Shown here: positions 6,462 through 55,415 of the stretch, one piece after another
How positions within the stretch are numbered: position 1 is the first letter of the stretch
Layout of the letters: each line of letters begins with the position of its first letter
Source of the DNA: Candidatus Latescibacterota bacterium
GTDB taxonomy: Bacteria; Latescibacterota; UBA2968; UBA8231
Direction of reading: 5' to 3'
Length of the DNA stretch: 64,000 nt
Assembly (NCBI GenBank): GCA_965215195.1
Contig: CBDCDC010000001.1
Location: 32,001 to 96,000 of the forward strand
Translations under genes and position numbers: made by a program
Notes under the pieces: model-generated
Seen by the model: only the letters and a program-made list of their open reading frames with translations
What the model was told of the DNA's origin: nothing
Databases searched by the model: none

Positions 6462-6538
6462 TGGTAGCGGCGAAGGGACTCGAACCCCCGACCTACGGAT
6501 TATGATTCCGCTGCTCTAACCAACTGAGCTACGCCGCC
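6462..6538 (-). tRNA. tRNA-Met (CAT), elongator type
   Basis: GGCGGCGTAGCTCAGTTGGTTAGAGCAGCGGAATCATAATCCGTAGGTCGGGGGTTCGAGTCCCTTCGCCGCTACCA; cloverleaf, paired G1-C72, encoded CCA; Ile2 identity not excluded. Confidence 0.92.
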
Positions 6539-12535: not shown

Positions 12536-12611
12536 CGGGCCGAAAATTCCGTTCTCGCGGCCCGTATTATCCGGCGCATTGGGACAGGCACATAAGGCGT
12601 TACGGCAGGAG

Positions 12612-19079: not shown

Positions 19080-19164
19080 GCCGAAGTGGTGAAATTGGTA
19101 GACACGCTGTCTTGAGGGGGCAGTGCCTTCGGGCGTCGGGGTTCGAATCCCCGCTTCGGCACCA
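19080..19164 (+). tRNA. tRNA-Leu (GAG)
   Basis: GCCGAAGTGGTGAAATTGGTAGACACGCTGTCTTGAGGGGGCAGTG...GGTTCGAATCCCCGCTTCGGCACCA; long variable arm. Confidence 0.95.
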
Positions 19165-34084: not shown

Positions 34085-36259
34085 TCAATCGCTCGGCCGT
34101 GTCGGTTCTAGCGGGACGGCTTGCCCTGCTTCCAACACCGCGCCGACCTCGCCGCACAGGCGCTCTTTGAGGGTGGTGTAACGCTGGGCGACCTTGTCGT
34201 TTGCAATGGCCAGCTTGAGGGCCTTGGGGGTGCCGACGATGACGATCATTTGCTTGGCGCGGGTAATGGCCGTGTAGAGTAGGTTGCGCTGGAGCATCAC
34301 GTAGTGCTGAGTCGTCAGCGGCAGCACCACCACGGGAAATTCCGACCCCTGAGAGCGGTGGATGCTGATGGCGTAGGCGAGGGTTAGCTGGTCGAGATCG
34401 ACTTGATCGTATTCCAAGGTGTAGTCAAAGCGCACGTAGAGCACCTGCTTTTCCGCGTCGAGCCGCTCAATTGTGCCGATGTCGCCGTTAAAAACGCCCT
34501 TGTCGTAGTTGTTTTTGACCTGCATGACCTTGTCGCCCACCCGGAACTCGGCCCCGCGATGGCGGAGTGCTTGGCCGTGCGGGTTGAGGCGCTGTTGCAG
34601 CCGCTGGTTGAGGTTGAGTGCGCCGGTCTCGCCGCGGTACATGGGCGAAAGCACTTGGATGTCGGCGCGTCGATCCCACTCTCGATAGCTGGGCAGCCGC
34701 GTGGCGCACAACTCCTCCACTAGCTCGACCACTCGCTCCGGGTCCCCCTCGCGGATAAAGTAGAAATCCGCGGCCGCATGGTTTTCGACAACGGGCATTT
34801 CGCCGCTGTTGATGCGGTGCGCGTTGCGGATGATGTGGCTTTTTTGAGCTTGGCGAAAAATCTGCGTCAGGCGCACCACCGGCACTTGGGCAGAGTCGAT
34901 GATGTCGCGGAGCACGTTGCCCGGCCCCACCGAGGGCAACTGGTCGATGTCACCGACTAGCACCAGCCGAGCGCGATCGGGCAGGGCGCGCAGGAGCGCG
35001 TTCATCAGCACCACGTCGATCATGGAAGCCTCATCGACGATCAGTGCGTCGAGTTCGAGGCGGTCGTCATAGCCCTTTTTGAATTGCCGCTCGCCCGGCT
35101 GAAATCCGAGCAGCCGATGAATGGTCTTGGCCTCGCGGCCGCTGGCCTCGCTCAGCCGCTTGGCGGCGCGGCCCGTAGGCGAGCACAGCGCGACCTTGAG
35201 GCCGCCTTCCTCCAACAGGCGCAAGATGCGCCGCGTAACGGTCGTCTTGCCGGTGCCCGGTCCGCCGGTCAGCACTAGCACCTTGCTCGTAGCGACCAAC
35301 TCCACGGCCTGTTCTTGCGCCGGGGCCAATTCCAGCCCGTCTTCAGCTTCTGCGGGCACGGCCAATTCTGCGGCCGATGCTTGCAAAAGCCGCTTTAGCG
35401 ACGATGCGGCACCCACTTCGGAGCGATGGAGCGGCGGTAAGTAGTAGTGCAGGTCTTCGGTGACTACGCCATCGCTGGCGCGCAGGGCCTCCAATGCCGG
35501 CGGCAGCAGCTCGGCGTTGATGTCCAAAATTTCGACCGCCCGCTCCATCATTTCGACCGCCGGCAGGTACACGTGCCCCTCGTTGGCCGCTTCGGAGAGC
35601 AGATAGCGGATGCCAGCCTGCACACGCTCGGGTGCATCGTGGCTCAGGCCCAAGCGCTGGGCAATGCGGTCGGCGATGCGGAAGCCGATCCCATCCACAT
35701 CGCGCTCTAGGCGATAGGGATCGCTGCGCACCTTTTGGATGGCCTCTTGGCCGTAGGTCTTGAAAATTTTTACTGCGTAGCCAGTGGTAATCCCGTGCGA
35801 CTGCAAAAAGACCATCACGTCCTTGATTTGCCGCTGCTCGTCCCAAGCCTCGGCAATGAGCTCGACCTTCTTCTTGCCCAGCTTGGGTACTTCCGCTAGC
35901 CGTTGGGGATCCGCGTCGATGACGTCGAGCGTTTCCTCGCCAAAGTGCTCGACGATGCGCTTGGCCGACCTCGGCCCGATGCCTTTGATCAAACCAGATC
36001 CGAGGTACTTTTGCATGCCTTCGAGGGTCGAGGGATAAACGGCCTTATAGCGCTCCACTTTGAGCTGTTTGCCGTATTTGGGATGATTGGTCCACACGCC
36101 TTCTACTTCGATGCTCTCGCCCTCTTGGATGGAGGCAATCGCCCCCACAATTGCGATTCGCTCCCGCTGGCCCTCTACTACTAAGCGCGCAATGGTATAG
36201 CCGTTTTCCGGGTTGTGGTAGGTCAGGCGATCTATAAAGCCTTTATACGATTGGTTCAT
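34085..36259 (-). CDS. recD2: ATP-dependent RecD2-like DNA helicase
   Basis: HPKYGKQ, YLGSGLIKGIG, HhH motifs, GGPGTGKTT, TIHRLL, VDEASM, QLPSVGPG, HRSQGSE, YTAITRA. Confidence 0.95.
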   Translation of the reverse strand: MNQSYKGFIDRLTYHNPENGYTIARLVVEGQRERIAIVGAIASIQEGESIEVEGVWTNHPKYGKQLKVERYKAVYPSTLEGMQKYLGSGLIKGIGPRSAKRIVEHFGEETLDVIDADPQRLAEVPKLGKKKVELIAEAWDEQRQIKDVMVFLQSHGITTGYAVKIFKTYGQEAIQKVRSDPYRLERDVDGIGFRIADRIAQRLGLSHDAPERVQAGIRYLLSEAANEGHVYLPAVEMMERAVEILDINAELLPPALEALRASDGVVTEDLHYYLPPLHRSEVGAASSLKRLLQASAAELAVPAEAEDGLELAPAQEQAVELVATSKVLVLTGGPGTGKTTVTRRILRLLEEGGLKVALCSPTGRAAKRLSEASGREAKTIHRLLGFQPGERQFKKGYDDRLELDALIVDEASMIDVVLMNALLRALPDRARLVLVGDIDQLPSVGPGNVLRDIIDSAQVPVVRLTQIFRQAQKSHIIRNAHRINSGEMPVVENHAAADFYFIREGDPERVVELVEELCATRLPSYREWDRRADIQVLSPMYRGETGALNLNQRLQQRLNPHGQALRHRGAEFRVGDKVMQVKNNYDKGVFNGDIGTIERLDAEKQVLYVRFDYTLEYDQVDLDQLTLAYAISIHRSQGSEFPVVVLPLTTQHYVMLQRNLLYTAITRAKQMIVIVGTPKALKLAIANDKVAQRYTTLKERLCGEVGAVLEAGQAVPLEPTRPSD

Positions 36260-36879
36260 AACAATCCAGATGCCCGGTACAATAACGCCGTACTCCCCGC
36301 GCCCAACGCGCCACCCGCGCCGAGCTGAAGCGGAGTATGGGCCCGCAAGTAAAGCCGCGCCCAAGCGACGGCTGGCCAACTCAGCAAGAAGGGCCACGCT
36401 GCGCTGCCGACGCTGATCAACAATATGTAGGTCGCTCCCCCGACGCCAGCCGCGTGAATGCTGATCTTATAAGAGCGATTGATCCACCAGACCAACAGCG
36501 TATTGACGACGCAAGACGCGGCCGCGACCAGCATCAGGGGCGGAGCACCGATCCCGTAGAGGGCCGCACTCCCCAAAGCGTAGCAAAGAGCACCCAGCAA
36601 GAGCAGGGTAGCGCGCTTGTTGCGGTCGTCTGTATAGGCTTGGTCGAGATAGCCCGAGCGCACCAAGTGCCAGAGTAGCAACCCGGGTACCACAGAGAAG
36701 GTGCCGATCGCCACTGCGCCGGCGAGCCAGTCGCCCAGTACGCGTGCTTGGACGCCGAAGACCAAGAGTGCCAACAGCGCGGGATTGAGCAAGTGCGAGA
36801 GGAAGTGTGCGGCTTGGTGCGGATGCAGACGAAAACAGGGACGAGCTAATTGCTCGCCCCTGTTTGTTTTTTTTGCCAT
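36256..36879 (-). CDS. PAP2-superfamily-like integral membrane protein
   Basis: About 6 TM helices, KISIH and WARLYLRAHTPLQ C-terminal PAP2-like motif; start MAKKTN. Confidence 0.65.
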   Translation of the reverse strand: MAKKTNRGEQLARPCFRLHPHQAAHFLSHLLNPALLALLVFGVQARVLGDWLAGAVAIGTFSVVPGLLLWHLVRSGYLDQAYTDDRNKRATLLLLGALCYALGSAALYGIGAPPLMLVAAASCVVNTLLVWWINRSYKISIHAAGVGGATYILLISVGSAAWPFLLSWPAVAWARLYLRAHTPLQLGAGGALGAGSTALLYRASGLL

Positions 36880-37292
36880 TTTTTTCCGCTGGCCGCGCCG
36901 CGATCGGGCGGCCTCTCGTCGTCTAGCACAAAGCCGATGAAGCGCTTCTGCCCAAGGGTCTTCAAGTATTGGAGCAGGGAGACCTCGGCCTCCTTGCGGT
37001 TGAGCTGGTACTTTTCGCTGAGCAATTCGATCATCTTGCCGACCGAGTTGCGGCCGTTGCACATCCGCCAGACCTCGCTGCCGACCTCGTCGAGGGTGAT
37101 TTTGCGCTGCTTGGGGATGTAGAAAAACTTGGACAGCAGCCGCACCTTCCAGGTCTCTTGGCGCTTTATTAAGACCCGCACCTCGTCGTTGTCGCTGAGC
37201 TCCCAGCTCAGGGACTCATTGCGCGTTGGCCGCGACGCCAACATGGCGGCCCGGCTCAGCTTGGGTGCCTTGTTTTTTGATAAAATGCCCAT
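36846..37292 (-). CDS. PqqD family / RiPP recognition element protein
   Basis: RKITLDEVGSEVWRMCNGRNSVGKMIELLSEKYQL...LLQYLKTLGQKRFI is a typical PqqD winged-helix pattern. Confidence 0.85.
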   Translation of the reverse strand: MGILSKNKAPKLSRAAMLASRPTRNESLSWELSDNDEVRVLIKRQETWKVRLLSKFFYIPKQRKITLDEVGSEVWRMCNGRNSVGKMIELLSEKYQLNRKEAEVSLLQYLKTLGQKRFIGFVLDDERPPDRGAASGKKWQKKQTGASN

Positions 37293-38208
37293 TTACTACC
37301 TTGGAGACTAAGTTGTCTTCTGCGTCTTTCTTGCGGTAGAGGTGCTCGACGATTGCGATCTTGTCGAGGTCGGTATCGCACCAGACGCGCCCCCGCAGAT
37401 ATAGGCGCGGCCTCGGGTTCATAAAGGGCAGGGGACGCAGCAGCTGACGCCAGCGGCTGCGCGGCCGCCCCTCAACGCGAATGCCCTCGTGCTCTTGCAC
37501 GGCTTCTGGAGCAATGTCCACCACGAAGTCGCGCAATTGCTTCTTAAAAAAAACCGGATACCAGTCTTGAACATACGCGTCTTTGAGCATGATCCGGGCC
37601 ATGCTCAACCGATGCACCCTTAGAACCTGTTTGCCGCGGGAAAACTCTAGCTGGATGTGGCCCGATTTGAGGGAATGGCTTTGCAGCTTGAGGTCGCTGG
37701 GCGCGAAAAACTGCAAGCCGTACACGCTCCACAGATGAGCGTCCTCAGCTTCTTGGTCGACGAGCGAGCTGAACACGGCCTCGGCTTGCTCGGGCAAAAA
37801 CTCGTCTAGCTTGGCCAGCACTCTCAGGAGCACTACCCGCCCGGACTCCAAGGCGAGCGCTAGGTTGTACGCGCGAAAGTCGGCTTCCCAGATGAAGACC
37901 TCGTATTCCCGGCCTTCGAGGAATTTCTTGTTTTTGAGGAATCGGGCGCGGCGCTGGACCTCAAAGGGGGCATCGACCTTTTGGGCCTTCTTTTGCAGGT
38001 TGGCCAAGTAGCGATCTACCAGCTCGGTCAGGCGCAGGGCCTCGCCGCGGCCTTTGAGACGCCGCCATTCGATCTCGGCGCGCACGATTTCGGCGTCGTC
38101 GAGGCGGGCATAGCCCTTTTCAAAGTCTCCGTCAACCCGGCCGAGATTCCAGTCGTCGGGCACGGACAGCCTCAGTCCTTGCCACGCGAAATCCACCCAA
38201 TCGCTCAT
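37216..38208 (-). CDS. hypothetical protein, two tandem PsbP/Mog1-like halves (tentative)
   Basis: Operon position; related segments WQGLRLSVPDDW and WSVYGLQFFAPSDL; no signal peptide. Confidence 0.7.
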   Translation of the reverse strand: MSDWVDFAWQGLRLSVPDDWNLGRVDGDFEKGYARLDDAEIVRAEIEWRRLKGRGEALRLTELVDRYLANLQKKAQKVDAPFEVQRRARFLKNKKFLEGREYEVFIWEADFRAYNLALALESGRVVLLRVLAKLDEFLPEQAEAVFSSLVDQEAEDAHLWSVYGLQFFAPSDLKLQSHSLKSGHIQLEFSRGKQVLRVHRLSMARIMLKDAYVQDWYPVFFKKQLRDFVVDIAPEAVQEHEGIRVEGRPRSRWRQLLRPLPFMNPRPRLYLRGRVWCDTDLDKIAIVEHLYRKKDAEDNLVSKVVNGHFIKKQGTQAEPGRHVGVAANAQ

Positions 38209-38209
38209 G

Positions 38210-40630
38210 CTAGAAGATCAACACGGAGACCGATTTCTGGATCAGGGCAATCCCCACCGATGCCATCCCCATCAGTGCCATGCCGCAGGAGAAGCCTACC
38301 GCCAGAATCGGAGCAAACTGCCGCCATTCCTGCCGCCCGTACTTGTTCCAAAAGTAGTAGCGAGCCAAGAGCGCACCGACGATCTCGGTGACGACCAAGT
38401 GTGGCAGAGTCGTCAGTGAGCGCACGAAACCAAAGATCAGCAGAATCGGCAGCCCGAGGATAGACAGCAGAATGAAACTCACCAGCCCAAAGCCGGCACC
38501 AAAGGCGATGACCTCTAGTTTCAGCGCCCTAAAGAGCCAAGGCACGTCGGTGGAGTGCTGGATCCAAGAGCTGGTAAAGAGCGGATCGGTATCGACCTCA
38601 AAGTAGAAGGACCATCCGGCCGGCACGGCACGCTCGACCTGCACTTCGAGGGTCGGGCGGGGATCGCGGATGATTGTGTCCATCGCTGGCCCCAGCGGCA
38701 CAATCGCCGGCAGGCCCTCGACAACTTCCTCTTCGGCTAGCTGCTCGTCGCGCAAGTAGCGCTCGGCGACGATGTCGGGTGCCCCCTGCTCAAAGTACGA
38801 GTAGAAAACTTGGGTCGGCATCCACTGCCCGACTTGGCCGCGCTTGCCGTTGGAGTCCAGCCACTCCTGATCCACTAGCCGCACCCGCCAGTACCACCAC
38901 TCGTTTTCGATTAGATTAGCCGGGGTCCATCCCGCCCGGTCGTTGTCTATGGCCAGTTCGCTGCGCATGGTGCCGGTGATAAACAGGCATTGCTGGTAGG
39001 CGCGCAGCCGCCACATTAGCTGGGCATAGGGGTAGGAGGCCGACGGAATGGGTGCCAGTTTCCAAATGTAGGAGCCGTAGAGAAAACTGGTAAAGAGTAC
39101 GATGGGCACCATGAAAATCTCGGCGCGGATGATGCTGGTAAACTGGGTTCCAGTCAATTCGATCTCGCGGAACTTCTGGGTCTGGGCACCGTAGTTGCCC
39201 AAGGGAAACGGAATGAACCAGATGTCAACGCCGCGATACCCAGAGAAGATAATCGTGGCCTCGCGCACAAAGGGGATCTCCACCGTCTGCCCCACCATCC
39301 CGACTAGGCGGGCGTTGACGAAGGACTGAAAGGGCGTGAATATGAAACCAAAAAAGAGAAAAAACCATATAAATTGGGCAATGCCCGGCAGCAGCCAGGC
39401 GGCGATGCCGATCAGGCCGGCCGTGGCCAAGACGTATAGGGCCAGCGCTACCCAGATGGGGAAATCGCCGCGGCCCACGGGGGTAGCGAAGCTGCGCTTG
39501 GGACTGCCATCATCTCCTGCGTTGGCCCTAGCACTGCGCACGCTCTGAAATACCTGATAGATGCCGATGACGGCGATGGCGATGGTGGTGCCGATGCCAA
39601 AGCTCATCCAGAAATCGACATTGTTGACGAAGAAGGTCTCGACCGTGCCCATGCCTTGCTGCCACAAATTCAGGTACGGCTCCTCGCGCCACGAAGGCGT
39701 CCAAGTATAGAGCAGCGGATTGGCAATGGAGGCGACGACCACGCCGAGAAAGGTGCCGACCACGCCCCAAAACGGCACCACTAGCCCGGTAAAGATCGGC
39801 CCCAAGTGCGCGGTAAATCCCAGCGGAGTGGCCGGGATGAAGTTACCGGTGACTTGCGTGAAGTCGACAAAGGGAATGGGTATGAGTTGGATCGGCTCAG
39901 TCAGCAGTGCGCCGGTAATCGCCGGCAAGGCCACGTAGATCGTGCCAAAGACCAAGCCGATCATCGCCCCGGCCGAGAATACTCGCCAGCGCCAAGTCTC
40001 AAGCCCTTGGGTGGTCTCGGCTAGGGCCGTAGCACCTTGGGCGTTTACGGGCGCGAAGGGAAAGGGCAGGCGCTCGTAGTCGGAGCTGAGCCGGAAGAGC
40101 GCGTACGACATGGTGAACCAGTTGATGCGCGAGATGATCATCCCCAAGACTAGGAGTACGATCGGCATCGCCCAATCCGAGTGTAGGAAGGTCCGCTCGA
40201 TGATGGCGGAGGAATTGAGCGGCGGTGCCACCCAAGTGGGAATCAGCTTGGTGATGCCGAACTGCTTGGCCGCTGGGGATTGCACCAAGTACTGGTTGTA
40301 GAGCAAACCCTCAAAGGCACCAGTCTCCGCGGCAATCAGGGAGGAGGCCACGTAGAACAGCACATAGACTTCTTGGCGCCGGAGGGAGGAAAAGGAGCGC
40401 TTGGTGATTTCGGCGAAGAGGATGATGGTCACCCACTCGGCCGCTGCCCCCAAAGAGCCACCGATCATCAGGCTCAAGTACATGTTGCCCGGCACCATGA
40501 TAAAGGCGACGAAGAATACGCCGAGGATGGCCTTGATCGTAAAGCCGTTCTCGAAGCGGTCCGGGACCTGCATTAGATCCCGATATTCTTCGATCTCTTG
40601 GTTCGGGTTTCTATTTTTTCTTCCGAGCAC
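38210..40630 (-). CDS. OPT/YSL-like oligopeptide transporter family membrane protein with a soluble beta-sandwich insert
   Basis: GFTIKAILG...YLSLMIG, AEWVTIILF.E, ERLPFPFAPV.AQGA.ALAE, many TMs; GTG start with GGAGG RBS. Confidence 0.75.
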   Translation of the reverse strand: MLGRKNRNPNQEIEEYRDLMQVPDRFENGFTIKAILGVFFVAFIMVPGNMYLSLMIGGSLGAAAEWVTIILFAEITKRSFSSLRRQEVYVLFYVASSLIAAETGAFEGLLYNQYLVQSPAAKQFGITKLIPTWVAPPLNSSAIIERTFLHSDWAMPIVLLVLGMIISRINWFTMSYALFRLSSDYERLPFPFAPVNAQGATALAETTQGLETWRWRVFSAGAMIGLVFGTIYVALPAITGALLTEPIQLIPIPFVDFTQVTGNFIPATPLGFTAHLGPIFTGLVVPFWGVVGTFLGVVVASIANPLLYTWTPSWREEPYLNLWQQGMGTVETFFVNNVDFWMSFGIGTTIAIAVIGIYQVFQSVRSARANAGDDGSPKRSFATPVGRGDFPIWVALALYVLATAGLIGIAAWLLPGIAQFIWFFLFFGFIFTPFQSFVNARLVGMVGQTVEIPFVREATIIFSGYRGVDIWFIPFPLGNYGAQTQKFREIELTGTQFTSIIRAEIFMVPIVLFTSFLYGSYIWKLAPIPSASYPYAQLMWRLRAYQQCLFITGTMRSELAIDNDRAGWTPANLIENEWWYWRVRLVDQEWLDSNGKRGQVGQWMPTQVFYSYFEQGAPDIVAERYLRDEQLAEEEVVEGLPAIVPLGPAMDTIIRDPRPTLEVQVERAVPAGWSFYFEVDTDPLFTSSWIQHSTDVPWLFRALKLEVIAFGAGFGLVSFILLSILGLPILLIFGFVRSLTTLPHLVVTEIVGALLARYYFWNKYGRQEWRQFAPILAVGFSCGMALMGMASVGIALIQKSVSVLIF

Positions 40631-40643
40631 TCGCTATCCTCCC

Positions 40644-43600
40644 TTACGCCGACACTTCGCTGCGCAGCCCTTGCAGAATTTCCGCGCCCTGTTGGCGGTA
40701 GCCTTCTTTGGCCTCGGCATCCACCGTGCGCCAGATGAGGAACTGCTTGCGGATGACGTTCATAAAGCGCTGGTTGACCCTTCGCCACGAGGCGTCCTCG
40801 CCGCTGAGTCGCTTGATTTGCAGGCCGACCGCGTAAATGTTGTGCTCGGCCTCTGGCATGGCCCGCACGGTGACGTGTTGGCTGACTCCGAGGTCAAAGG
40901 GAGCCAGCCAAATGTTCATGTCGATCAGATATCCCTCGCCGTTGGGCGTCTCCTCGCGTTTCAAGCTGGCACCGTCGGTGTAGAAAGTGCCGATGGACTC
41001 CTCGCTGTAGGAGTCGAAATAGCCGATGAGGAATACGCTCAAGCCCAAGACCTCGTGGCCGCTGACCGTAAAGGGGAACTCGAAATCCCACTGGTCGCCA
41101 TCGGGCGGCGGCAGCTTCCACTTGCGGGTCACGTCGGGCACGGCCATCTGCGATGCCTTGCGCGCTGGATAAATCGTCGAGAGCATGACCACGGCCATTA
41201 CCAGCATACAGGAGAGCACCGCGGCCACCGAGGAGTAGTTGAGGGTGAAGCCGCCCAGCAGGTCGAACTCAATGAGCACCTTGGCGATCACTTGGCCGCT
41301 GAGGTAACCGGCTACTACTCCGAGCACCGAGTACACGCAACTCTCGGCGATAAAGAGCCAAGAGATATGGCCGGGGGCTAAGCCCACTGAAGAGTAGATG
41401 CCGATTTCGCGGAAGCGCTCGTACACGCTGCCCATCATGGTGTTGAGCACGATCAGTGAGGCGATCAGCATGGGGATGAACAAGTTGCTCATGCCGGAAA
41501 AAGAGGTCATCCCCAGCGATGAATAGATCGACACCTTGATGTATTCGTCTCCGGGCTCCTTGACTCCGGCGAAGAGCGTCACCGCGAGGCGGGAGAGGAA
41601 CTCCTCGACCTCGCCGCGCACATCGCTGCCTGCTGGGAAGCGCACCGCTACCGACTGTAGCGGGTTGCCGCTGCCGACGTTGCGCAGCGTGTGGTAGGGC
41701 GTGATCAGGATGTTGGCCGGCTCTAGATGGACAAAGGGCTTGATGACGACCTTGGCGTCCTCCAAGCCCTGCTTCTCGCGCTTTTCTTCCTCGGCTATTT
41801 CCTGCACGGCTTGGCCGCCGGTGACGGCAAAGTCGGCCGGCGTCAGGATTTCGTCGTCGAGATCTTTGAGGTCCTTCATCCGCTTGGAGTCGAGGACGCC
41901 AACGACCGTGAACAAGTCGCCGAAGATCCGCACCTGCGCCCGGCCGACATCGGCGAGGTCGAGGTCGAGATGGGCCTCCTTGACCATGTCGATGGGCAGG
42001 ATGCAGACCTTGTCCTCGCCCGGCTCAAACCACCGCCCGGCAACTAGGGCTTGGTCCAGCCCGGTGACCTCGGTTTCATCCGGGGTCAATCCGAGGACGC
42101 CGAGCGCGTTATGGGCCTTGTCGCCGTGTTTTATTTTGATATGCGCCTTGGCTTTGTTGCTGTACCAACTGCGCGGCGCGACCGCGGCGCGACCGCCGAA
42201 GTTGCTGCGGGCGTATTCGAGCACGGAATCCTCCATCGGATTCCACGCCTTGCTGCGGATTAGGATGCCTTCGTAGAGGCCCTCGTTGTCGCGGCTGATT
42301 TGGTTGAATCGCAAGCCGGTGCGGATGGAGGTGAAAGAGAGGACCGTAAAGGTCAGCAGCAAGAGCGTGGTAAAGGTGAGGACCGTGCGCGTCTTGCGCC
42401 GCTTCATGTTGGAAATCCCGAGCTGGAAGGCCGTCAGCGAGGCCGAAGAGCGGCTGACGTCCGTGTCGTGAATCACGGCCACCTCGGTGCGCAGCTTCTT
42501 CATCTGCTCGTTGAAGCGGCCGGAAATGATCGACATTACGAGGACGGCCAGCGCGATGATGATGAAGGCCAATAGGATGACGAAGGGATTGGATAGCTGG
42601 AAGGCCGGATGCACTATCCACAGCACGATCCAGATCGCCAAGAAGACCCCGACGAATCCGATGATCTGATTGCGGATCGTGGCGGCCGTAAAAAGGAGCC
42701 GCTCGGTAAAAAAGGCGCAGGGAAGGACGAGGGCCATGAAGAAGATAATGCCCTGAATGACGTCGTTTTGGGTGGATTTGACGTCTGGATAGGCACGCGA
42801 CTCCAGCCCGAAGGCCGCGCGCGTGTGGCGCACGAAATCGCCCCAGCGCTGCTCGGTGCCAGCCGCTGCGGCTTGGTCTAGCTCGGTCTCGGCCCGGTAG
42901 TGGAGGTCGTTGAGGCGCTGGTTTTCAATGGCAAAGCTCCGCAACTCGCGCATCCGCGACTCGTCGAGATTCCACATGTCTTGGGCGGCTTGGAAGGTCG
43001 TGCGGGCAAAAGAGGTGCCGGGGCGGATCTCAAAGCCCTCGCCTTCGGCCTTGTCTTTGTTGGTGACGCTAGTGGCGTTGAGCAGCAGCGAGCGAAAGCC
43101 GAGCAGGCCCGCGCCAAAGCCCATCTTTATGCGCGAGCCGGGCCGCGCAAAGAGCACCCCAACCGGCTCGTTTTGGGCCGAGGGGCCTTCGCCGATGGTG
43201 TAACCGTACTCCACGGGTGCGCTGTTCGTCTCGTCGAAAACCTGCACGTTGGACAGCTTGGTGAGATAGCGCGGATCGACGATGTCGAAGAAGTTGTAGG
43301 GTACGCAGGGGAAGAGGATGACCATCCACTGCTTGTCGCGCCAGTCCATGGAGACCTTCATCGGGTAGCTCTCGTCGCCTTGCACGCCGCGGTCTGGGGC
43401 GTAGGTGATGCGGCCGGTGATCGGGTCCATGTAGTAGCCCTCGATCTGCACGTTGTTGACCCGCACCCGATTTACGTAAAAAGCCCCCCGATCATCGACG
43501 ACTTCGTAATACTCGCCGCGCACGCCTTTGTACGACTTTTTCTTGCCGTTGCGCACGACGGCCACTGCGTCGGCACGCGGCAGGTCGGGGATGATGCTGC

Positions 43601-45470
43601 GGCGCGGAAAGACCATGGTGCGGCCGCGCAGGGAGCGCAGATTGTCGCGCAGGCGCATCTTGAAGTCCGGGAAAAGCTCTGGGTCTGCAAAGGCCATCTC
43701 GAACATGCCGGAGAGCACCCGGATCTGTTTGGCGAGATTGGCGTGGTTGACGCGCTCGCCTTGGTCTAAGGGCGTATCGACGAGGAAGCGCGCGTCGTTG
43801 ACGGTGACAAAGGCCAACGCCGGCGTACCGGTCGCCAACACCAATTCGCTGTTGACCGATATTTCGCCCGGTACAAAAGTCTGCCAGCTCATCCCGCCTT
43901 CGGGGCTGATGCCATTGACCAGCACGTCGCGCTGTTGGTAGCCCAGTTCGCGGCTGATCTTGCGCGCATAAGCCATGAAGTTCTTGCCGAAGGGCGCGAA
44001 GTAGCGCTTGTAGTAAAAGCTGGTATTGCTATTCCACACCCCGAGCTCGTCGGTCTGCGAAGAAAGGTCGAGACTGATGAAGAGCTTGACCGCGAGCGAA
44101 TCGACTTTGGGATCGACCCAAGTTTTGTAGAGCGCGAGGCGCAAGTCGTCGTCCGAGCGCACCTGATCAACCAGTTCGCGGCGGTTTTTGAATCGCTCGC
44201 CGGCGAGGTGCAGGTCGCCTTCTTCTCGGCTCAGCAGCCCCTTGAGGCCCTCTACGGCTCTCTTCCACAAGCCCTGTGAACTGCTCGCTGCGCCTTCTTC
44301 TTGGCTCAGCAGCCCTTCGGCGAGCGCGGCGTCGGCAATGTCTGCGGCCAAGTCGGTGCGCCCTTCGGCAACGCTCCGCACGAGAGCTTCCTTGCCGGTG
44401 AACTCCTCCTCGCCGATGGCGTAGTGGATGCCGTCTTGGGCGATCATGTTCCGTGCGAGTGCGGCATCGACGACCCGCCTCACCAGCATGTGTTCGATAA
44501 AGGGATCCTCTTTGCGCAAATAGCGCTGGATGAAATCATCGACCCCGCGCAAGCCTAAGTGGTGGGCCGAAGTAGCGAGAAAGACGACCGTGCGCGCTGG
44601 CGGGTGCGCACGAAAATAGCGCGCCAGCTCCAACAGTGCAGTAATGCTGGAGGCCTGCTCGGCACCCGGGGTGAGGGCCGGCACGACCGACATGGCGTCG
44701 TAGTACGCTTCCAGCACGATCACGTCCTCTTTCATCAAGGGATCGTATCCGGGGATCGCGCCGAGGATATTCCAAGCGGGACGCCGCTCCCAATCCATGC
44801 GGTACTCCAAGTGCAGCGTCTGCTCGTCCCCTGCGGCCAATTGGCGGCGCAGGCGCTGGCCGGCTTGGCGATTGATCCAGAACCTCGGCAGGTCGAGCGG
44901 CATGGTGAGGAACTTCTTTTCGCCTTCCAAGTACACGGTGGAGTCCGGCTCGATAAAGACGATGGCCTGCGCCCCCAGATAGGCGGCATTGAGCCAAGCG
45001 TCGCCCGAATTGAAGTCCATCAGGGCGACGGCCCCTTCGACTTGTTGGCCATCCATGTCCGCGTATTCGCCCGCGCCGGCGTCTATCAAGCGCCCGGTCA
45101 CCCCGCCTTCGGGCAGCGTCGAAGTTTTGACTAGATTGGGCCAGAGGCCGTGGATTGGCACTTGTTCGCCGCTTTCGACGACCCGCAGGAATCCGCCCTT
45201 ATCGACGGGAATCGAGACGTCGTATTCGTGGACTGCGACGTCGTCGAGGCCGATTGCGCGGAAGTGCTCCTGCACGATCTGGGCCGCTTGGTCGGCCCCC
45301 GGATAGCCGGCGACCCTAGATCCCAAACCGGCAAAAGTGTCCATCGTCTGCTGTACGCGCTCGACCGGGGCCGTGCGCGCCAACTCGGCAAAATCGACCT
45401 CGGCTTGGGCCAGTGCCGCGCCGGCCAAAATCCAGCCGAGGGCCATCCACTTCACCGCGAACTTAGGCAT
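40644..45470 (-). CDS. large membrane protein: signal peptide, M28/nicastrin-like domain, TM bundle and MacB/FtsX permease
   Basis: SRVAGYPG, PA-like domain, AYYD..PGAEQA; NMKRRKTRTVLT; NTMMGSVYERFREIGIYSSVGL (FtsX motif); start MPKFAVKW. Confidence 0.85.
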   Translation of the reverse strand: MPKFAVKWMALGWILAGAALAQAEVDFAELARTAPVERVQQTMDTFAGLGSRVAGYPGADQAAQIVQEHFRAIGLDDVAVHEYDVSIPVDKGGFLRVVESGEQVPIHGLWPNLVKTSTLPEGGVTGRLIDAGAGEYADMDGQQVEGAVALMDFNSGDAWLNAAYLGAQAIVFIEPDSTVYLEGEKKFLTMPLDLPRFWINRQAGQRLRRQLAAGDEQTLHLEYRMDWERRPAWNILGAIPGYDPLMKEDVIVLEAYYDAMSVVPALTPGAEQASSITALLELARYFRAHPPARTVVFLATSAHHLGLRGVDDFIQRYLRKEDPFIEHMLVRRVVDAALARNMIAQDGIHYAIGEEEFTGKEALVRSVAEGRTDLAADIADAALAEGLLSQEEGAASSSQGLWKRAVEGLKGLLSREEGDLHLAGERFKNRRELVDQVRSDDDLRLALYKTWVDPKVDSLAVKLFISLDLSSQTDELGVWNSNTSFYYKRYFAPFGKNFMAYARKISRELGYQQRDVLVNGISPEGGMSWQTFVPGEISVNSELVLATGTPALAFVTVNDARFLVDTPLDQGERVNHANLAKQIRVLSGMFEMAFADPELFPDFKMRLRDNLRSLRGRTMVFPRRSIIPDLPRADAVAVVRNGKKKSYKGVRGEYYEVVDDRGAFYVNRVRVNNVQIEGYYMDPITGRITYAPDRGVQGDESYPMKVSMDWRDKQWMVILFPCVPYNFFDIVDPRYLTKLSNVQVFDETNSAPVEYGYTIGEGPSAQNEPVGVLFARPGSRIKMGFGAGLLGFRSLLLNATSVTNKDKAEGEGFEIRPGTSFARTTFQAAQDMWNLDESRMRELRSFAIENQRLNDLHYRAETELDQAAAAGTEQRWGDFVRHTRAAFGLESRAYPDVKSTQNDVIQGIIFFMALVLPCAFFTERLLFTAATIRNQIIGFVGVFLAIWIVLWIVHPAFQLSNPFVILLAFIIIALAVLVMSIISGRFNEQMKKLRTEVAVIHDTDVSRSSASLTAFQLGISNMKRRKTRTVLTFTTLLLLTFTVLSFTSIRTGLRFNQISRDNEGLYEGILIRSKAWNPMEDSVLEYARSNFGGRAAVAPRSWYSNKAKAHIKIKHGDKAHNALGVLGLTPDETEVTGLDQALVAGRWFEPGEDKVCILPIDMVKEAHLDLDLADVGRAQVRIFGDLFTVVGVLDSKRMKDLKDLDDEILTPADFAVTGGQAVQEIAEEEKREKQGLEDAKVVIKPFVHLEPANILITPYHTLRNVGSGNPLQSVAVRFPAGSDVRGEVEEFLSRLAVTLFAGVKEPGDEYIKVSIYSSLGMTSFSGMSNLFIPMLIASLIVLNTMMGSVYERFREIGIYSSVGLAPGHISWLFIAESCVYSVLGVVAGYLSGQVIAKVLIEFDLLGGFTLNYSSVAAVLSCMLVMAVVMLSTIYPARKASQMAVPDVTRKWKLPPPDGDQWDFEFPFTVSGHEVLGLSVFLIGYFDSYSEESIGTFYTDGASLKREETPNGEGYLIDMNIWLAPFDLGVSQHVTVRAMPEAEHNIYAVGLQIKRLSGEDASWRRVNQRFMNVIRKQFLIWRTVDAEAKEGYRQQGAEILQGLRSEVSA

Positions 45471-45487
45471 AGTTGTAAGTGCCTTTC

Positions 45488-47458
45488 TCAGATCCAGAAG
45501 ACCACATTGTCGGTCATGCCCGTAAAAAAATCGATAATCAACCAGAGCCCGGCGATGAAAAACTGGCCTACGATCAGGCCCAAAAAGAAGGGACGCGCCC
45601 GGCGAAAAAGGCTGGGACCGCCGTATTTCATTGCCATTAACTTTAAGAGCCAAGCGAGGGCAATGCTAAACCACAACTGGTCCATCAGCCATACGGCACC
45701 AATGGGGTATCCAATGGGATGCAGAGGCCACCACAAGAGCCGCTGGCGCACCCACATGAGCAGGGCCATGATGCCCCCGCCGACAAAAGTGTGAACCCAG
45801 CCATCTATGTTCGGCTTGGTGGGCGCGCTTAACTTGGTGGTAATATAATCAAAAGGGGCGCGAGTTCCACCACCAAAAAACCACCCGTTGAGGTTGATGC
45901 CACCGTATTCGTAGGCGAGGTACAAAATTGCTGCGACCGAGCCGACAATGCTGACGAAAATCGCCAGCAGCATGTACCAAAAAAGCGGGCGCAGCCGCGG
46001 CCCCAGTTCTTCGCCCAACTTGAGGCCGTGTGCGCAGGAAGCCATGACAAACGTGCGGATGTCCGCCGCCCACACGTAAGTGTAGGCGAGGCCGACCATG
46101 CCCGCCGGGCCGAGCACCGAAGAGCCTACGGCCGAGACCAAGACCGACGAAGAAATCATCGGCCCGACCGCCGCTGCCACGCCTCCCTCTACTACCACTC
46201 GGGTCAAGCCGACAAAAATAAGGATGGCCAGCATCAGGGTCAAAAAGGCCGCCCACAGCGGCAAGCCGGACTGCCACAGCCAGATGGTCATCACCGCGAC
46301 TCCGGCGAGCCAAGTTAAGACCGCCGCCCGATAGGAGAGCATCTCGCCGCGGTCGTCAATGCGGTCGTCGCCCACGAGGGCCTTGCGCAACACGTCGCGC
46401 AGGTGTTCGCGGCCGACCCACAGGCCGAAAAACACTAAGACGATCATCGCCCCCTGTCCTTGATGGGCGAGGATCGGCTCGCTAGGAGCACCGTAAATGC
46501 CCAGCTTTTCGGTGCTACCGACCCCTAAAACCCCCAGCCCTCCTCGAATCAGCTTGGCGATGGTGTTGAAAAACCACAGGCTGAAGGCAATGTCGAGATT
46601 GATTAGATAGGCGAACCCCACCATGGGAAAGCTCAGGCGGAAGATCAGGCTGACGGTGTTGCGCAGGATCGGCACAGAGGAGACGAGCTGGATGGCGGGG
46701 ATGAAGTTGAAGTACGCGTGTAGGGCGTTGAGACTGCTGACGAGCGCGGGCAGGGCAAAGCCGATCCACATGATCGGGTTTTTGAAGAAAGGCCCTAGGG
46801 CCTCTCCGCGGCTCCCGCTCTGCACCATGGCCAAGGGCACTTGCACCAGCGGGTAAACCAGCCGCTCCCGCTCCACCCACTGGCGGCGCAGAATGACCAT
46901 AGACGAGATCATAACCAAGTACAGGGCCACGATCAGCACGGCCCAATAGCACAGCGGGCCGCCCCAGACGGCCCAAGGCACCCCAGCGGTGCGCGGTGCC
47001 CCTTCGTAAAACCACTTGATCGACTCGGGATCCTGCGGCGCGATCCAGTCGGGAAGGTGCGGCAGGATGTGCAAGGCCCACTCGTTTTCCGGGGTGGCGT
47101 AGTACTGGGCACCGGTGATGATCGTCAGCCAGTACTCGCTGAGGCCCATCGTGGGGATGGCCGAAGCCGTGAGCATCATAATGTACGCGACGATGAGCTC
47201 GCAGCGCCCGAGGGCCACAGGAGTGGCGAAGCGAGTCAGCAAGGCGTTGAACGAGCCAGTCAGCACGAAGAAGAGGAACAGGGCACCTGCCGCGCTGAAA
47301 TCAATCGACATGTAGGAGCCGCGGATGACCATATTGCCGTAAGGTGCCCCCAAGGCAATGCACAGCGACCCCAAGGTCCCCGCCGTCAGCGCTTTGGCGC
47401 TGAAGACCGGCTCGGCTCGTACTGGGCCCTGAAAGGCAGACTCTTGCGGCAAATCCAT
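45488..47458 (-). CDS. DUF6785/DUF6784-type multi-pass membrane protein
   Basis: ELIVAYIM, ILRRQWVERERLVYPL, RVVVEGG, WWPLHPIGY, KYGG..LFRRARPFFLGLIVG. Confidence 0.8.
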   Translation of the reverse strand: MDLPQESAFQGPVRAEPVFSAKALTAGTLGSLCIALGAPYGNMVIRGSYMSIDFSAAGALFLFFVLTGSFNALLTRFATPVALGRCELIVAYIMMLTASAIPTMGLSEYWLTIITGAQYYATPENEWALHILPHLPDWIAPQDPESIKWFYEGAPRTAGVPWAVWGGPLCYWAVLIVALYLVMISSMVILRRQWVERERLVYPLVQVPLAMVQSGSRGEALGPFFKNPIMWIGFALPALVSSLNALHAYFNFIPAIQLVSSVPILRNTVSLIFRLSFPMVGFAYLINLDIAFSLWFFNTIAKLIRGGLGVLGVGSTEKLGIYGAPSEPILAHQGQGAMIVLVFFGLWVGREHLRDVLRKALVGDDRIDDRGEMLSYRAAVLTWLAGVAVMTIWLWQSGLPLWAAFLTLMLAILIFVGLTRVVVEGGVAAAVGPMISSSVLVSAVGSSVLGPAGMVGLAYTYVWAADIRTFVMASCAHGLKLGEELGPRLRPLFWYMLLAIFVSIVGSVAAILYLAYEYGGINLNGWFFGGGTRAPFDYITTKLSAPTKPNIDGWVHTFVGGGIMALLMWVRQRLLWWPLHPIGYPIGAVWLMDQLWFSIALAWLLKLMAMKYGGPSLFRRARPFFLGLIVGQFFIAGLWLIIDFFTGMTDNVVFWI

Positions 47459-47560: not shown

Positions 47561-47589
47561 CTATTATAATAGTACTAGCCCTAGTCCAA
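47561..47589 (-). promoter_or_regulatory. candidate promoter of the 36.2-47.5 kb operon
   Basis: Perfect TATAAT (47568-47563) inside palindrome CTATTATAATAG; TTGGAC upstream but with only a 15-nt spacer. Confidence 0.35.
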
Positions 47590-48093
47590 CCAGCCTATTT
47601 TCTCTAGTTGTTCCAAGGTCCACCAAGCCAACAGGCCAATCGCCCCCCCGCTCACCAAAGCGCTGAACAAGGCCAGCGGCAAAAGCGCGAACAGACCGCT
47701 GTGGCCGATATAGCCAGCGGCGAGAACGAGCTGGCTGAGCTGGTGCGCCAACGCGCCCCAGATGCTCAGGCCCACGACGCTGAAAAGCCGCGCTCCCATG
47801 CGGCGGACCGCAACCATGACCAGCCAGCTCGCCAAGCCAGCCCCGCCGCCTATGACAAAGGCCGGACCGGCAAATCCCCCGCTGAGCAAGCCGCCGACTA
47901 CGAGCTTGATGGCACTAACGGCCAACGCCGGGCCGCCGCCAAAGCTCACCAGCGCGACCAAAACCGGCAGATTGCCGAGCCCCAACTTCATCCAAGGCAA
48001 GGGTTTGGGCACCAGCGATTCAAAGGCAAAGAGCACGATGGCCGCACTGGCCATAAGCCCCAAACGGGCCACGTCTCTAGGGCGCGCAAACAT
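47581..48093 (-). CDS. Gx transporter family (heptaprenyl diphosphate synthase component I-like) membrane protein
   Basis: ESLVPKPLPWMKLGLGN, GLSIWGALAHQLSQL; ATG overlaps the upstream TGA. Confidence 0.8.
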   Translation of the reverse strand: MFARPRDVARLGLMASAAIVLFAFESLVPKPLPWMKLGLGNLPVLVALVSFGGGPALAVSAIKLVVGGLLSGGFAGPAFVIGGGAGLASWLVMVAVRRMGARLFSVVGLSIWGALAHQLSQLVLAAGYIGHSGLFALLPLALFSALVSGGAIGLLAWWTLEQLEKIGWLD

Positions 48094-48482
48094 CAGCGAA
48101 TCATCGCGTCTAGGGGCGCGGCACCAGCGATCCTCAGCACTAGGCCGTTGGGTACGCACGCGGCCACGTCGCCCGCTCGCTGCATCCAGCCTTGCCGCAT
48201 GCAGATCTTGTGGACGCAGGGCGCGGAAAGTACGCGCACGCCCTTAGGGCCGATTTCGATCTCGCTCGCTCCCAAAGGCCCTACAACCGGCAAGACTCCG
48301 TAGTTGGAGAGGGCATGTGTGGCGGGCGCGGCCCCGGCCAACTCGACGATGAGCACGCCGCCGGCTTCGGCCGTATAGCGGCCGTAGAGCACCAGCCCGA
48401 GCGCGCTCAAGCTCACGACGAGCGCGAGGATTTTATCCGCTCGCGTCAGCGCCGGTGCGTTTTCGGTATTTAGCCGCCACAT
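48093..48482 (-). CDS. NusG domain II-containing (DUF1312) membrane-anchored protein
   Basis: N-terminal TM, GPLG..EIEI, SAPCVHKICMRQGW, ACVPN. Confidence 0.85.
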   Translation of the reverse strand: MWRLNTENAPALTRADKILALVVSLSALGLVLYGRYTAEAGGVLIVELAGAAPATHALSNYGVLPVVGPLGASEIEIGPKGVRVLSAPCVHKICMRQGWMQRAGDVAACVPNGLVLRIAGAAPLDAMIR

Positions 48483-55338: not shown

Positions 55339-55415
55339 TGGTGGGCAATCGCAGATTTGAACTGCGGACCTCCGGTATGTGAGACCGGCGCTCTAACCAA
55401 CTGAGCTAATCGCCC
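55339..55415 (-). tRNA. tRNA-Val (CAC)
   Basis: GGGCGATTAGCTCAGTTGGTTAGAGCGCCGGTCTCACATACCGGAGGTCCGCAGTTCAAATCTGCGATTGCCCACCA. Confidence 0.95.

Follow-up and report, generated by a model that had tools for sequence, protein, structure and literature searches.

A candidate type VII ABC envelope machine with OPT-fold partners in Latescibacterota and its possible role in uptake of peptide-like oligomers

Introduction

What kind of machine is encoded by an operon that combines a giant FtsX-type permease subunit with two further large membrane proteins and contains no ATPase gene? The question arises from a 64,000-nt stretch of DNA from a Candidatus Latescibacterota bacterium (hereafter the window, to which all coordinates refer unless another contig is named), where a block of six genes on the minus strand, at 36256-47458, encodes the proteins that we call A to F. 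A preliminary description of this DNA had read them as a multi-subunit membrane system composed of OPT-like transporters, a fusion of a nicastrin-like domain with an FtsX permease, and PsbP-like, PqqD/RRE-type and PAP2-like proteins.

We propose, at a probability of about 55%, that B to E, with A as an accessory partner, form the cis-encoded part of an envelope machine that is built on a type VII (MacB/LolCDE/FtsEX-fold) ATP-binding cassette (ABC) motor, is coupled to OPT-fold permeases and has uptake of peptide-like oligomers as its likeliest role. Its parts are not equally firm. The composition and the class of the motor are highly probable; uptake of peptide-like oligomeric nutrients, a function argued by analogy, falls somewhat short of an even chance.

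Results

A short FtsX protein and an ABC ATPase are linked to the giant subunit B

Related loci were fetched with an alignment of the six B paralogues of the window's own genome (G000). A relative was encoded in 566 of the 580 candidate stretches, and the best 80 of these, nearly all from Latescibacterota metagenome-assembled genomes (MAGs), were kept. Clustering of the neighbouring genes showed that several loci carry an ABC_tran gene close to B. The most distant loci have, directly before this gene, one for a 214-236-aa FtsX-domain protein (sFtsX; FtsX Pfam model, 65.8 bits), which has four transmembrane (TM) helices and a loop of ~55 residues instead of a large periplasmic domain. sFtsX and the ATPase share one operon with B and C in four loci, L102, L105, L108 and L110. 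L102 has all of B, C, D, E, sFtsX and ABC, encoded in a single direction; in L108, B, C, E, sFtsX and ABC lie between FtsY and GGDEF genes, and L105 is similar. A second scan, seeded with the L110 protein, yielded 29 Armatimonadota/Zipacnadia loci. The order sFtsX-ABC-B-C was found in 25 of the 25 Armatimonadota loci with enough upstream sequence; of the others, L122 reaches its contig edge at the ABC gene, and the contigs of three loci start within B.

The window's own genome holds one clear orthologous pair, sFtsX at G000:C2:1364212-1364913 and ABC at 1364935-1365705. It lies 1.3 Mb into another contig, beside a gene for a GT2 glycosyltransferase and at a great distance from all B genes. This sFtsX scores 216 bits versus 50 for the next FtsX protein of the genome, and the ATPase, which is 73% identical to the cis-encoded ATPases, scores 398 bits versus 275 for the next. 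Among NCBIfam models the ATPase comes nearest to LolD, MacB and FtsE and sFtsX to LolC/E and MacB, all below the equivalog cut-offs (LolD 226.8 vs 307.75 bits; FtsE 205.1 vs 264.85; lolCE 53.7 vs 362.45; FtsX_Gneg 26.3 vs 255). The FtsX domain PF02687 is present in all six B paralogues. On these sequence data, a cognate ATPase of the LolD/MacB/FtsE type appears to be encoded in cis in relatives and in trans here. The preliminary description was correct that the operon has no ATPase: Pfam and NCBIfam scans of the six genes and four flanking genes found no ABC ATPase, radical SAM enzyme or other enzyme for ribosomally synthesized and post-translationally modified peptides (RiPPs). That statement does not extend to the machine, which has an ABC ATPase as well as sFtsX, in cis in distant relatives and in trans here. 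In the neighbourhoods, for which it had expected a conserved core and possibly a linked ATPase, B-C(-D-E) recur and distant relatives encode the ATPase in the same operon.

Two further ATPases were observed. The second-best match in the genome (275 bits) is an orphan LolD/MacB-type ATPase gene at G000:C2:3379883-3380635, beside uvrB and with no adjacent permease gene; its product might serve some of the B paralogues. In one paralogue group (L079, L095-L099 and L103), a second ABC ATPase, 57-59% identical to that of the machine, is encoded ~3 kb upstream of A-B-C. No sFtsX gene stands beside it, and it adjoins a gene for a xylose-isomerase-like TIM-barrel protein.

B joins a pseudo-peptidase head to a MacB/FtsX module

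B matches the Pfam families Peptidase_M28 (34.6 bits; cut-off 21.3), MacB_PCD (35.3; cut-off 27) and FtsX (56.7; cut-off 25.5), the M28 match covering only profile positions 1-79 of 193. We place the start of B at M62 (45470), where a signal-peptide-like segment begins and to which the paralogue alignment also points; residue numbers follow the 1669-aa open reading frame (ORF). The order of domains is signal peptide, periplasmic PA/M28-like head, large unassigned ectodomain, three TM helices, MacB/FtsX module and cytoplasmic C-terminal domain. A hydropathy scan located the three extra helices at residues 965-1043, TM1 of the module at 1092-1110 and TM2-4 within 1385-1494, and the Pfam matches lie at 1090-1276 (MacB_PCD) and 1392-1503 (FtsX). 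The periplasmic core domain is inserted between TM1 and TM2 of the 4-TM module, as in type VII ABC permeases. When a profile of the six paralogues was compared with PDB sequences, the C-terminal part of B matched YtrF (9o9x), MacB (5nik/5lil) and LolC (7arh).

With the same profile, the head matched 2ek8 (E 5.6e-15), YwaD (6hc6, 1.2e-12) and Nicalin (7tm3, 1.7e-5). The earlier label "nicastrin-like" is borne out by the Nicalin match as a loose likeness; among proteins of solved structure, bacterial PA-M28 aminopeptidases come closest (E 6e-15). M28 peptidases hold their zinc ligands and catalytic Glu in motifs of His, Asp and Glu-Glu. In the alignments to 2ek8 and 6hc6, HHDS is replaced by YYDA, GAnDDASG by GAeqasg and GAEE by sahf; the canonical His, Asp and Glu-Glu are gone from B and likewise from all six paralogues, in agreement with the earlier view of an inactive peptidase domain, and the C-terminal ligands fall outside the alignable region. 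Y318, D319, E332 and H364 are invariant across the six paralogues. This pattern suggests a metal site that has been remodelled rather than simply decayed, and a changed rather than an empty site is possible.

Conservation among the paralogues is highest in TM2-4 (58% mean identity) and lowest in the middle ectodomain (34%), with the periplasmic core domain next (37%). The C-terminal domain, with 44% mean identity over the six paralogues, has no Pfam or PDB-sequence match, and its fold is unassigned. We searched a library of 1.84 billion proteins, clustered at 50% identity, with the FtsX module plus C-terminal domain and obtained 1172 cluster representatives at E<=1e-30, of which the best 150 were inspected. 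The C-terminal domain is covered by nearly all of these 150. Relatives of B extend the head with Ig-like (Big_5) domains in some cases and with LysM in one.

C and A are OPT-like partners of B

C matched no Pfam family at E<=0.01 and no NCBIfam or PDB sequence, and the C-family profile had no match at E<=10 in the sequences of the PDB. An AlphaFold2 model computed on 28 sequences (pLDDT 75.6, pTM 0.76) had only two significant Foldseek matches in the PDB, both barley YS1: 7wst (E 2.2e-6) and 7wsr (3.8e-6), at probability 1.00 and with a TM-score of 0.58-0.60 on the target over ~600 residues. The model carries a beta-rich periplasmic insert at about residues 556-690. At its N-terminus C has a conserved peptide, placed in the cytoplasm, with the consensus EIEEYRDLLE.P.EFE.GF. 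The OPT-like character proposed for C is thus upheld by its predicted fold. A protein-atlas search with C returned only Latescibacterota clusters, one of them auto-named "Peptide transporter family protein".

A matches DUF6785 (412 bits) and DUF6784 (106 bits) and no OPT model, and a profile of its family found among PDB sequences only a chance match at E 2.3, and no YS1. Alignment of the C and A families with hhalign (probability 91.9%, E 6.8e-7, 213 N-terminal columns) indicates that the two are distant homologues, probably paralogues; an OPT fold of A can be suggested only through this alignment to C and over those 213 columns.

Gene order ties both proteins to B. B and C are separated by 13 nt in the window and overlap by 4 nt in the paralogue locus L009. 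By tblastn, C adjoins B in 61/80 loci, and it does so in 26/29 Armatimonadota loci; several of the misses in the 80-locus counts are contig ends. A is found upstream of B in 53/80 loci and is accessory in gene order. Two of the best 150 representatives described above are natural fusions of B with a C-terminal DUF6785+DUF6784 protein (P0015, 2120 aa, and the fragment P0046; Pfam 401 and 377 bits), which argues for a physical partnership of B and A.

Several loci depart from the common plan. In L009 the C paralogue (G000:C2:643771-646998) is 1075 aa long and has a PDZ domain near residue 860, and the operon continues with DnaJ-domain, YbjN/CesT-like, PspA/IM30 and spermidine-synthase-like genes; spermidine-synthase-domain genes also recur beside B or A in other loci. 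The close relatives L051 and L067 carry ~6-9 kb of extra genes (the unannotated family f29) between B and C, so that the operon is interrupted, apparently by an insertion of mobile or lineage-specific DNA.

D and E are cytoplasmic, and F probably belongs elsewhere

D and E are assigned to the cytoplasm because neither has a TM segment or a signal peptide. D belongs to no Pfam or NCBIfam family. Its AlphaFold2 model (pLDDT 84.7) best matched the type VI secretion system (T6SS) immunity proteins TplEi/Tli4 (5h7y and 4r1d, E 2e-5) in Foldseek, followed by PsbP (1v2b/2vu4, TM-score 0.66-0.68 on the target), Mog1p (1eq6) and the Eag chaperone SciW. The protein described as PsbP-like is so indeed, and has two such domains. 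D was found in 34/80 loci, and in four Armatimonadota loci it lies a few kb downstream of C (190-207 bits).

E, also present in 34/80 loci, scores 42.8 bits with Pfam PqqD (cut-off 23.4), which confirms it as a PqqD/RRE-type protein. The NCBIfam pathway models all stay below their cut-offs (lasso_PqqD 29.9 of 80 bits, PQQ_PqqD 28 of 46, GeoRSP 25.8 of 100). The alignment shows a conserved insert and a conserved C-terminal ASGKKW tail. E is encoded in cis with B-C-sFtsX-ABC in the relatives L108 and L102.

F had been counted as a PAP2-like member of the system. Its PAP2 score is 16.5 bits against a cut-off of 27.2 (E 0.0074), and the gene does not follow B-E: in relatives it always stands directly before the RecD2 gene, an opposite-strand flagellin gene parts it from E in at least six loci, and it is absent from distant loci. 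F is probably not part of the system.

Copy numbers, co-occurrence and phylogeny

The window's own genome (6.13 Mb) has 47 DUF6785 matches, 44 of them full length, six B and five C genes, and one gene each for D, E, sFtsX and the orthologous ABC protein. A copy of A lies within 8 kb of 6/6 B genes, and a copy of C accompanies five. With one A per ~139 kb, by simple arithmetic, the proximity of A to B is far from chance. Many of the 44 DUF6785 genes occur in recurring cassettes (for example G000 C2:278700-284739, C2:516615-523727 and C1:656059-663604). These hold a 39-member family of 600-1000 aa ending in FlgD_ig/CHU_C domains of the type IX secretion system type, a 15-member family of ~900 aa without a Pfam match, a ~305-aa family, SurA-like peptidyl-prolyl isomerases, FG-GAP/ASPIC proteins and PMT_2+TPR proteins, and look like polymer-utilisation loci around OPT-like permeases.

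Across a sample of 121 genomes of the phylum, B was found in 108, DUF6785 in 107 and sFtsX in 101, the latter never with more than one match. One set of 13 genomes, which belong to a single family (f10) and are 64-97% complete, lacks all three. The seven genomes with B and without sFtsX are all <=89% complete, and none of the 121 has sFtsX without B. Three small genomes (G005, G016 and G011) encode B and sFtsX on one contig, no more than ~4 kb apart. Canonical FtsX (~290 aa; 145-248 bits, full length) was detected in 71/121 genomes, including most families with B, and a TIGR00439-like canonical FtsX in 0/40 genomes of the window's own family, f1. The idea that the machine replaces FtsEX was dropped, as canonical FtsX coexists with B in most families.

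The gene set was found in Latescibacterota, Armatimonadota and unclassified MAGs. A FastTree phylogeny of B (53 rows, after 40 near-duplicates among 93 had been dropped; midpoint root only) places the window's B in a 13-row clade with local support of 100, whose loci carry D and E. L102 and L105 fall outside this clade, and the Armatimonadota are separate.

Layout, transcripts and surroundings of the operon

The six genes were found as ORFs on the minus strand where the preliminary description had put them (Table 1), and the coordinates reproduce its spacing of 17 nt between A and B, 13 nt between B and C and 1 nt between C and D, followed by overlaps of D with E and of E with F. Hydropathy also agrees with its count of three large polytopic proteins (A, B and C), two soluble proteins (D and E) and a small membrane protein (F), numerous TM segments being predicted for A, B, C and F but not a single one for D or E. 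Relatives keep B, C, D and E in this order; the arrangement is therefore not due to chance.

Table 1. Coordinates of the operon, of the parts of B and of other features in the window
Feature	Position	Strand	Size or residues	Description
A	45488-47458	-	656 aa	DUF6785+DUF6784, OPT-like permease
B, ORF	40644-45653	-	1669 aa from TTG	giant subunit
B, preferred start	40644-45470	-	1608 aa from M62	giant subunit
B, PA + M28-like domain	44394-45398	-	residues 86-420	metal site apparently remodelled
B, three extra TM helices + FtsX-type module	41169-42773	-	residues 961-1495	Pfam, TM scan
B, cytoplasmic C-terminal domain	40647-41168	-	residues 1496-1668, ~170 aa	conserved
C	38210-40630	-	806 aa	membrane protein, predicted OPT fold
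D	37216-38208	-	330 aa	two PsbP/Mog1-like domains
E	36846-37292	-	148 aa	PqqD/RRE-type
F, ORF	36256-37062	-	268 aa	weak PAP2 likeness
F, if started at internal ATG near 36879	36256-36879	-	~207 aa	weak PAP2 likeness
NusG_II-domain gene + Hpre_diP_synt_I-family gene	47581-48482	-		upstream, co-directional; Pfam
tRNA Met-CAT	6462-6538			
tRNA Leu-GAG	19080-19164			
tRNA Val-CAC	55339-55415			

Six metatranscriptome runs contain 12-14% of the window's sampled words. Contigs from four runs (four studies), 92-95% alike, cover ~37.0-47.2 kb; one of 6967 nt spans D, C and most of B, one bridges the C/B junction and one the B/A junction. Coming from close relatives, from runs chosen with this same stretch and with DNA carry-over possible, they are consistent with, though no proof of, expression as an operon.

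RecD2 is encoded downstream. Upstream lie the Hpre_diP_synt_I-family membrane-protein gene and the NusG_II-domain gene, which overlap, and a divergent relA/spoT gene (Pfam). The Hpre_diP_synt_I/NusG_II pair is always directly upstream of [A]-B in the window's clade and was not found in paralogous or distant loci. Promoters and terminators predicted between 34000 and 49000 were about as numerous as expected from shuffling and marked no operon boundaries. An Rfam scan of the window found no RNA family besides the three tRNAs, all of which are far from the operon. Elsewhere, positions 10000-14000 have a G+C content of 0.51-0.53, compared with ~0.60-0.65 in the rest of the window, and may be foreign DNA.

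Discussion

A possible mechanism and the case for uptake

In the machine that we envisage, B would pair with sFtsX in the membrane and dock a dimer of the ATPase. Binding and hydrolysis of ATP would move the periplasmic core domain of B and its ~900-residue PA/M28-like head, which may serve as a binding or gating module for a periplasmic ligand. This work could be coupled to C and to DUF6785 paralogues such as A, which would provide the path across the membrane, with D and E as putative adaptors or receivers on the cytoplasmic face, E having a peptide-binding RRE fold. One shared motor set (sFtsX, ABC, D and E) may serve all six B "heads".

Uptake is favoured for three reasons. First, the OPT/Yellow-Stripe (OPT/YS) relatives of C are importers; HvYS1 is described as a homodimer with an elevator-like mechanism (PMC9691689). 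Second, copies of A and paralogues of B, here and in relatives, sit among catabolic genes: Gfo/Idh/MocA, MR_MLE (enolase superfamily), SDR, PhyH, sulfatases, amidohydrolases, DHDPS-family and HpcH aldolases, and BMC shell proteins. Third, divergence among the B paralogues is concentrated in their periplasmic parts, the motor interface being conserved.

Several observations weigh against this proposal. To our knowledge no type VII ABC system imports, and the characterised ones are described as acting outward or within the periplasm. The window's clade and the single-copy distant loci sit among housekeeping and envelope genes (RelA, RecD2, FtsY, LepB, RodA, Lpt and Mla) rather than catabolic ones, and these single-copy operons are presumably ancestral. 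The co-occurrence of B, sFtsX and DUF6785 amounts to about one loss or gain event, in the f10 lineage, since kin are not independent; the shared pattern of presence and absence is still what a shared machine predicts. A is missing between the upstream gene and B in ~12 orthologous loci. The B-linked copies of A are scattered and do not form a subfamily of their own, an idea that we dropped after a FastTree phylogeny of A (44 rows, three fragments left out) required 6 changes for the 6 B-linked rows, where shuffled labels averaged 5.7. A search among longer proteins with C as the query gave no C-containing fusion, which is weak evidence. The limits of the RNA contigs stated above also count here.

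Alternative readings

The same machine might work outward, in export or envelope biogenesis: E would present a cytoplasmic peptide or tail, C would move or flip the substrate, and the motor and the head of B would extract it or hand it on. This would suit E, as RRE domains in RiPP pathways bind peptides made in the cytoplasm. Small genomes (G005, G016 and G011; 1.8-2.6 Mb) have kept the machine, in a single copy. The distant cis operons lie beside genes for FtsY, signal peptidase, RodA/FtsW, pseudopilins, LptFG and Mla, and the heads of relatives carry LysM in one case and Ig-like domains in others. LolCDE, MacAB and YbbAP-TesA (PMC12646458) likewise extract substrates or hand them on in the periplasm, and all characterised type VII systems are described as acting outward or within the periplasm. 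The loci, on the other hand, offer no conserved membrane-fusion or outer-membrane partner, HlyD-like genes being near only four of them, and no conserved candidate cargo gene. The import function of the OPT-fold relatives also speaks against this direction, and six B and 44 A copies among catabolic genes fit nutrient uptake better. We consider the outward direction unlikely on balance; because the single-copy operons sit among envelope and housekeeping genes, it remains a serious rival.

Less probable still, and at long odds, is a regulator of the FtsEX-EnvC kind, in which the degenerate head of B would switch a periplasmic hydrolase under control of the ATPase and C would be a scaffold rather than a transporter. 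FtsY adjoins the operon in L108, as ftsY stands beside ftsEX in the ftsYEX operon of Escherichia coli, and canonical FtsX was not detected in any of the 40 genomes of the window's own family. The analogy to FtsEX-EnvC (PMC7668044) is that an FtsX-type module would control a metallopeptidase domain that has degenerated. Most of the phylum's other families, however, have canonical FtsX alongside B and sFtsX, and no hydrolase gene is conserved in the operon. A regulator of this kind would also leave the fixed OPT-fold partner, the B-DUF6785 fusions and the PqqD subunit unexplained.

A machine free of any ATPase, with an FtsX module lacking an ABC partner, proton-driven OPT subunits and a hand-off to the RRE protein, would account for the fact that none of the genome's six B loci contains or adjoins an ATPase gene. 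It is contradicted by the gene-order data and very improbable: the ATPase and sFtsX genes are in the B-C operon in the 4 distant loci and in every informative Armatimonadota locus, and one orthologous pair is present in this genome and in each sampled genome that carries B and is reasonably complete. The smallest chance of all falls to a RiPP pathway, of which the operon would be a remnant or exporter and the PqqD gene the sign. In its favour, E matches PqqD and, weakly, the lasso-peptide and PQQ chaperone models. Its scores, however, lie far below the cut-offs of the pathway-specific models; neither the window's operon nor the scanned loci of relatives yielded a gene for a precursor, radical SAM enzyme, cyclase or protease; and E is kept together with the membrane machine across distant lineages.

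Implications

The uptake machine proposed here may go further and be a modular hybrid transporter, in which one shared, ATP-driven motor, equipped with the PqqD- and PsbP-like adaptors, works with six interchangeable heads, each of which feeds OPT permeases drawn from a pool of 44. Latescibacterota and further uncultured phyla would then take up oligomers mainly through this transporter, which would also be the first type VII ABC system to act inward; we regard this extended version as doubtful. It would play the part that SusCD/TonB systems or binding-protein-dependent ABC importers play elsewhere. Oligomer import, if true, would overturn the view of type VII ABC systems as outward only, explain the nutrition of abundant uncultured degraders, and assign a function to two DUF families with 40 or more copies in a genome. 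One lesson for annotation is that the ATPase of an "orphan" FtsX permease may be encoded in trans. The machine is large, widespread and apparently unstudied.

Comparison with known systems

The preliminary description knew of no characterised system with this composition, and our literature searches agree: no paper was found that names DUF6785; searches for FtsX with M28 and OPT, or for type VII ABC/MacB with oligopeptide transporter, gave nothing relevant among the listings and abstracts; and Latescibacteria with oligopeptide transporter returned only unrelated papers. The closest known systems each share some features with the machine and differ in others.

Stand-alone RREs (PqqD and the lasso-peptide B1 proteins) share with E the PqqD domain above the Pfam cut-off. 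E differs from them in being linked to a membrane machine with no RiPP context and in its conserved insert and ASGKKW tail. D shares its tandem PsbP-like architecture, by Foldseek, with two-domain proteins of the PsbP/Mog1 fold (Tli4/TplEi, PA3488 and Eag/SciW). D differs in being cytoplasmic, without a signal peptide, and in having no T6SS or lipase context, and the identity is only 8-16%.

Nicastrin and Nicalin, like B, have an inactive-looking PA+M28-like ectodomain anchored to a polytopic membrane complex. B is closer to the active bacterial PA-M28 aminopeptidases (2ek8), four residues of its apparently remodelled site are invariant, and it has no presenilin- or TMEM147-like partner.

The OPT/YS family, which we take to be TC 2.A.67 and Pfam PF03169, offers the predicted fold of C in HvYS1 (PDB 7wst), with A as a distant homologue of C. 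Given the HvYS1 dimer, an A-C or C-C pair is conceivable. Both proteins nevertheless go undetected by the OPT sequence model and by PDB sequence searches, C has the beta-rich periplasmic insert, and the known OPTs act alone on the proton gradient, with no ABC partner.

The type VII ABC systems (MacAB-TolC, LolCDE, FtsEX-EnvC, YbbAP-TesA and YtrEF) share with the machine the FtsX module with its periplasmic core domain and the LolD/MacB/FtsE-like ATPase. As in LolC/LolE, there would be a heteromeric pair of FtsX-type subunits, here B and sFtsX, and as with EnvC or TesA a periplasmic enzyme-like module is tied to the motor. In contrast to these systems, B is a giant of 1600 residues that incorporates a pseudo-peptidase head, has three additional TM helices and ends in a cytoplasmic domain; its partner sFtsX has almost no periplasmic domain; an OPT-fold partner appears obligatory and is joined by PqqD-like and PsbP-like cytoplasmic proteins; and the motor genes of this genome are unlinked from the six paralogous heads and reach no equivalog cut-off. 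Judged by these scores, the machine is not a Lol, MacB or FtsEX equivalog, though it belongs to the FtsX/MacB permease superfamily. We rate it as a type VII ABC system of unprecedented architecture, which differs from every characterised one that we found in its giant head, its truncated partner subunit, its obligatory OPT-fold subunit, its PqqD and PsbP-like proteins, and its arrangement of one motor with several heads.

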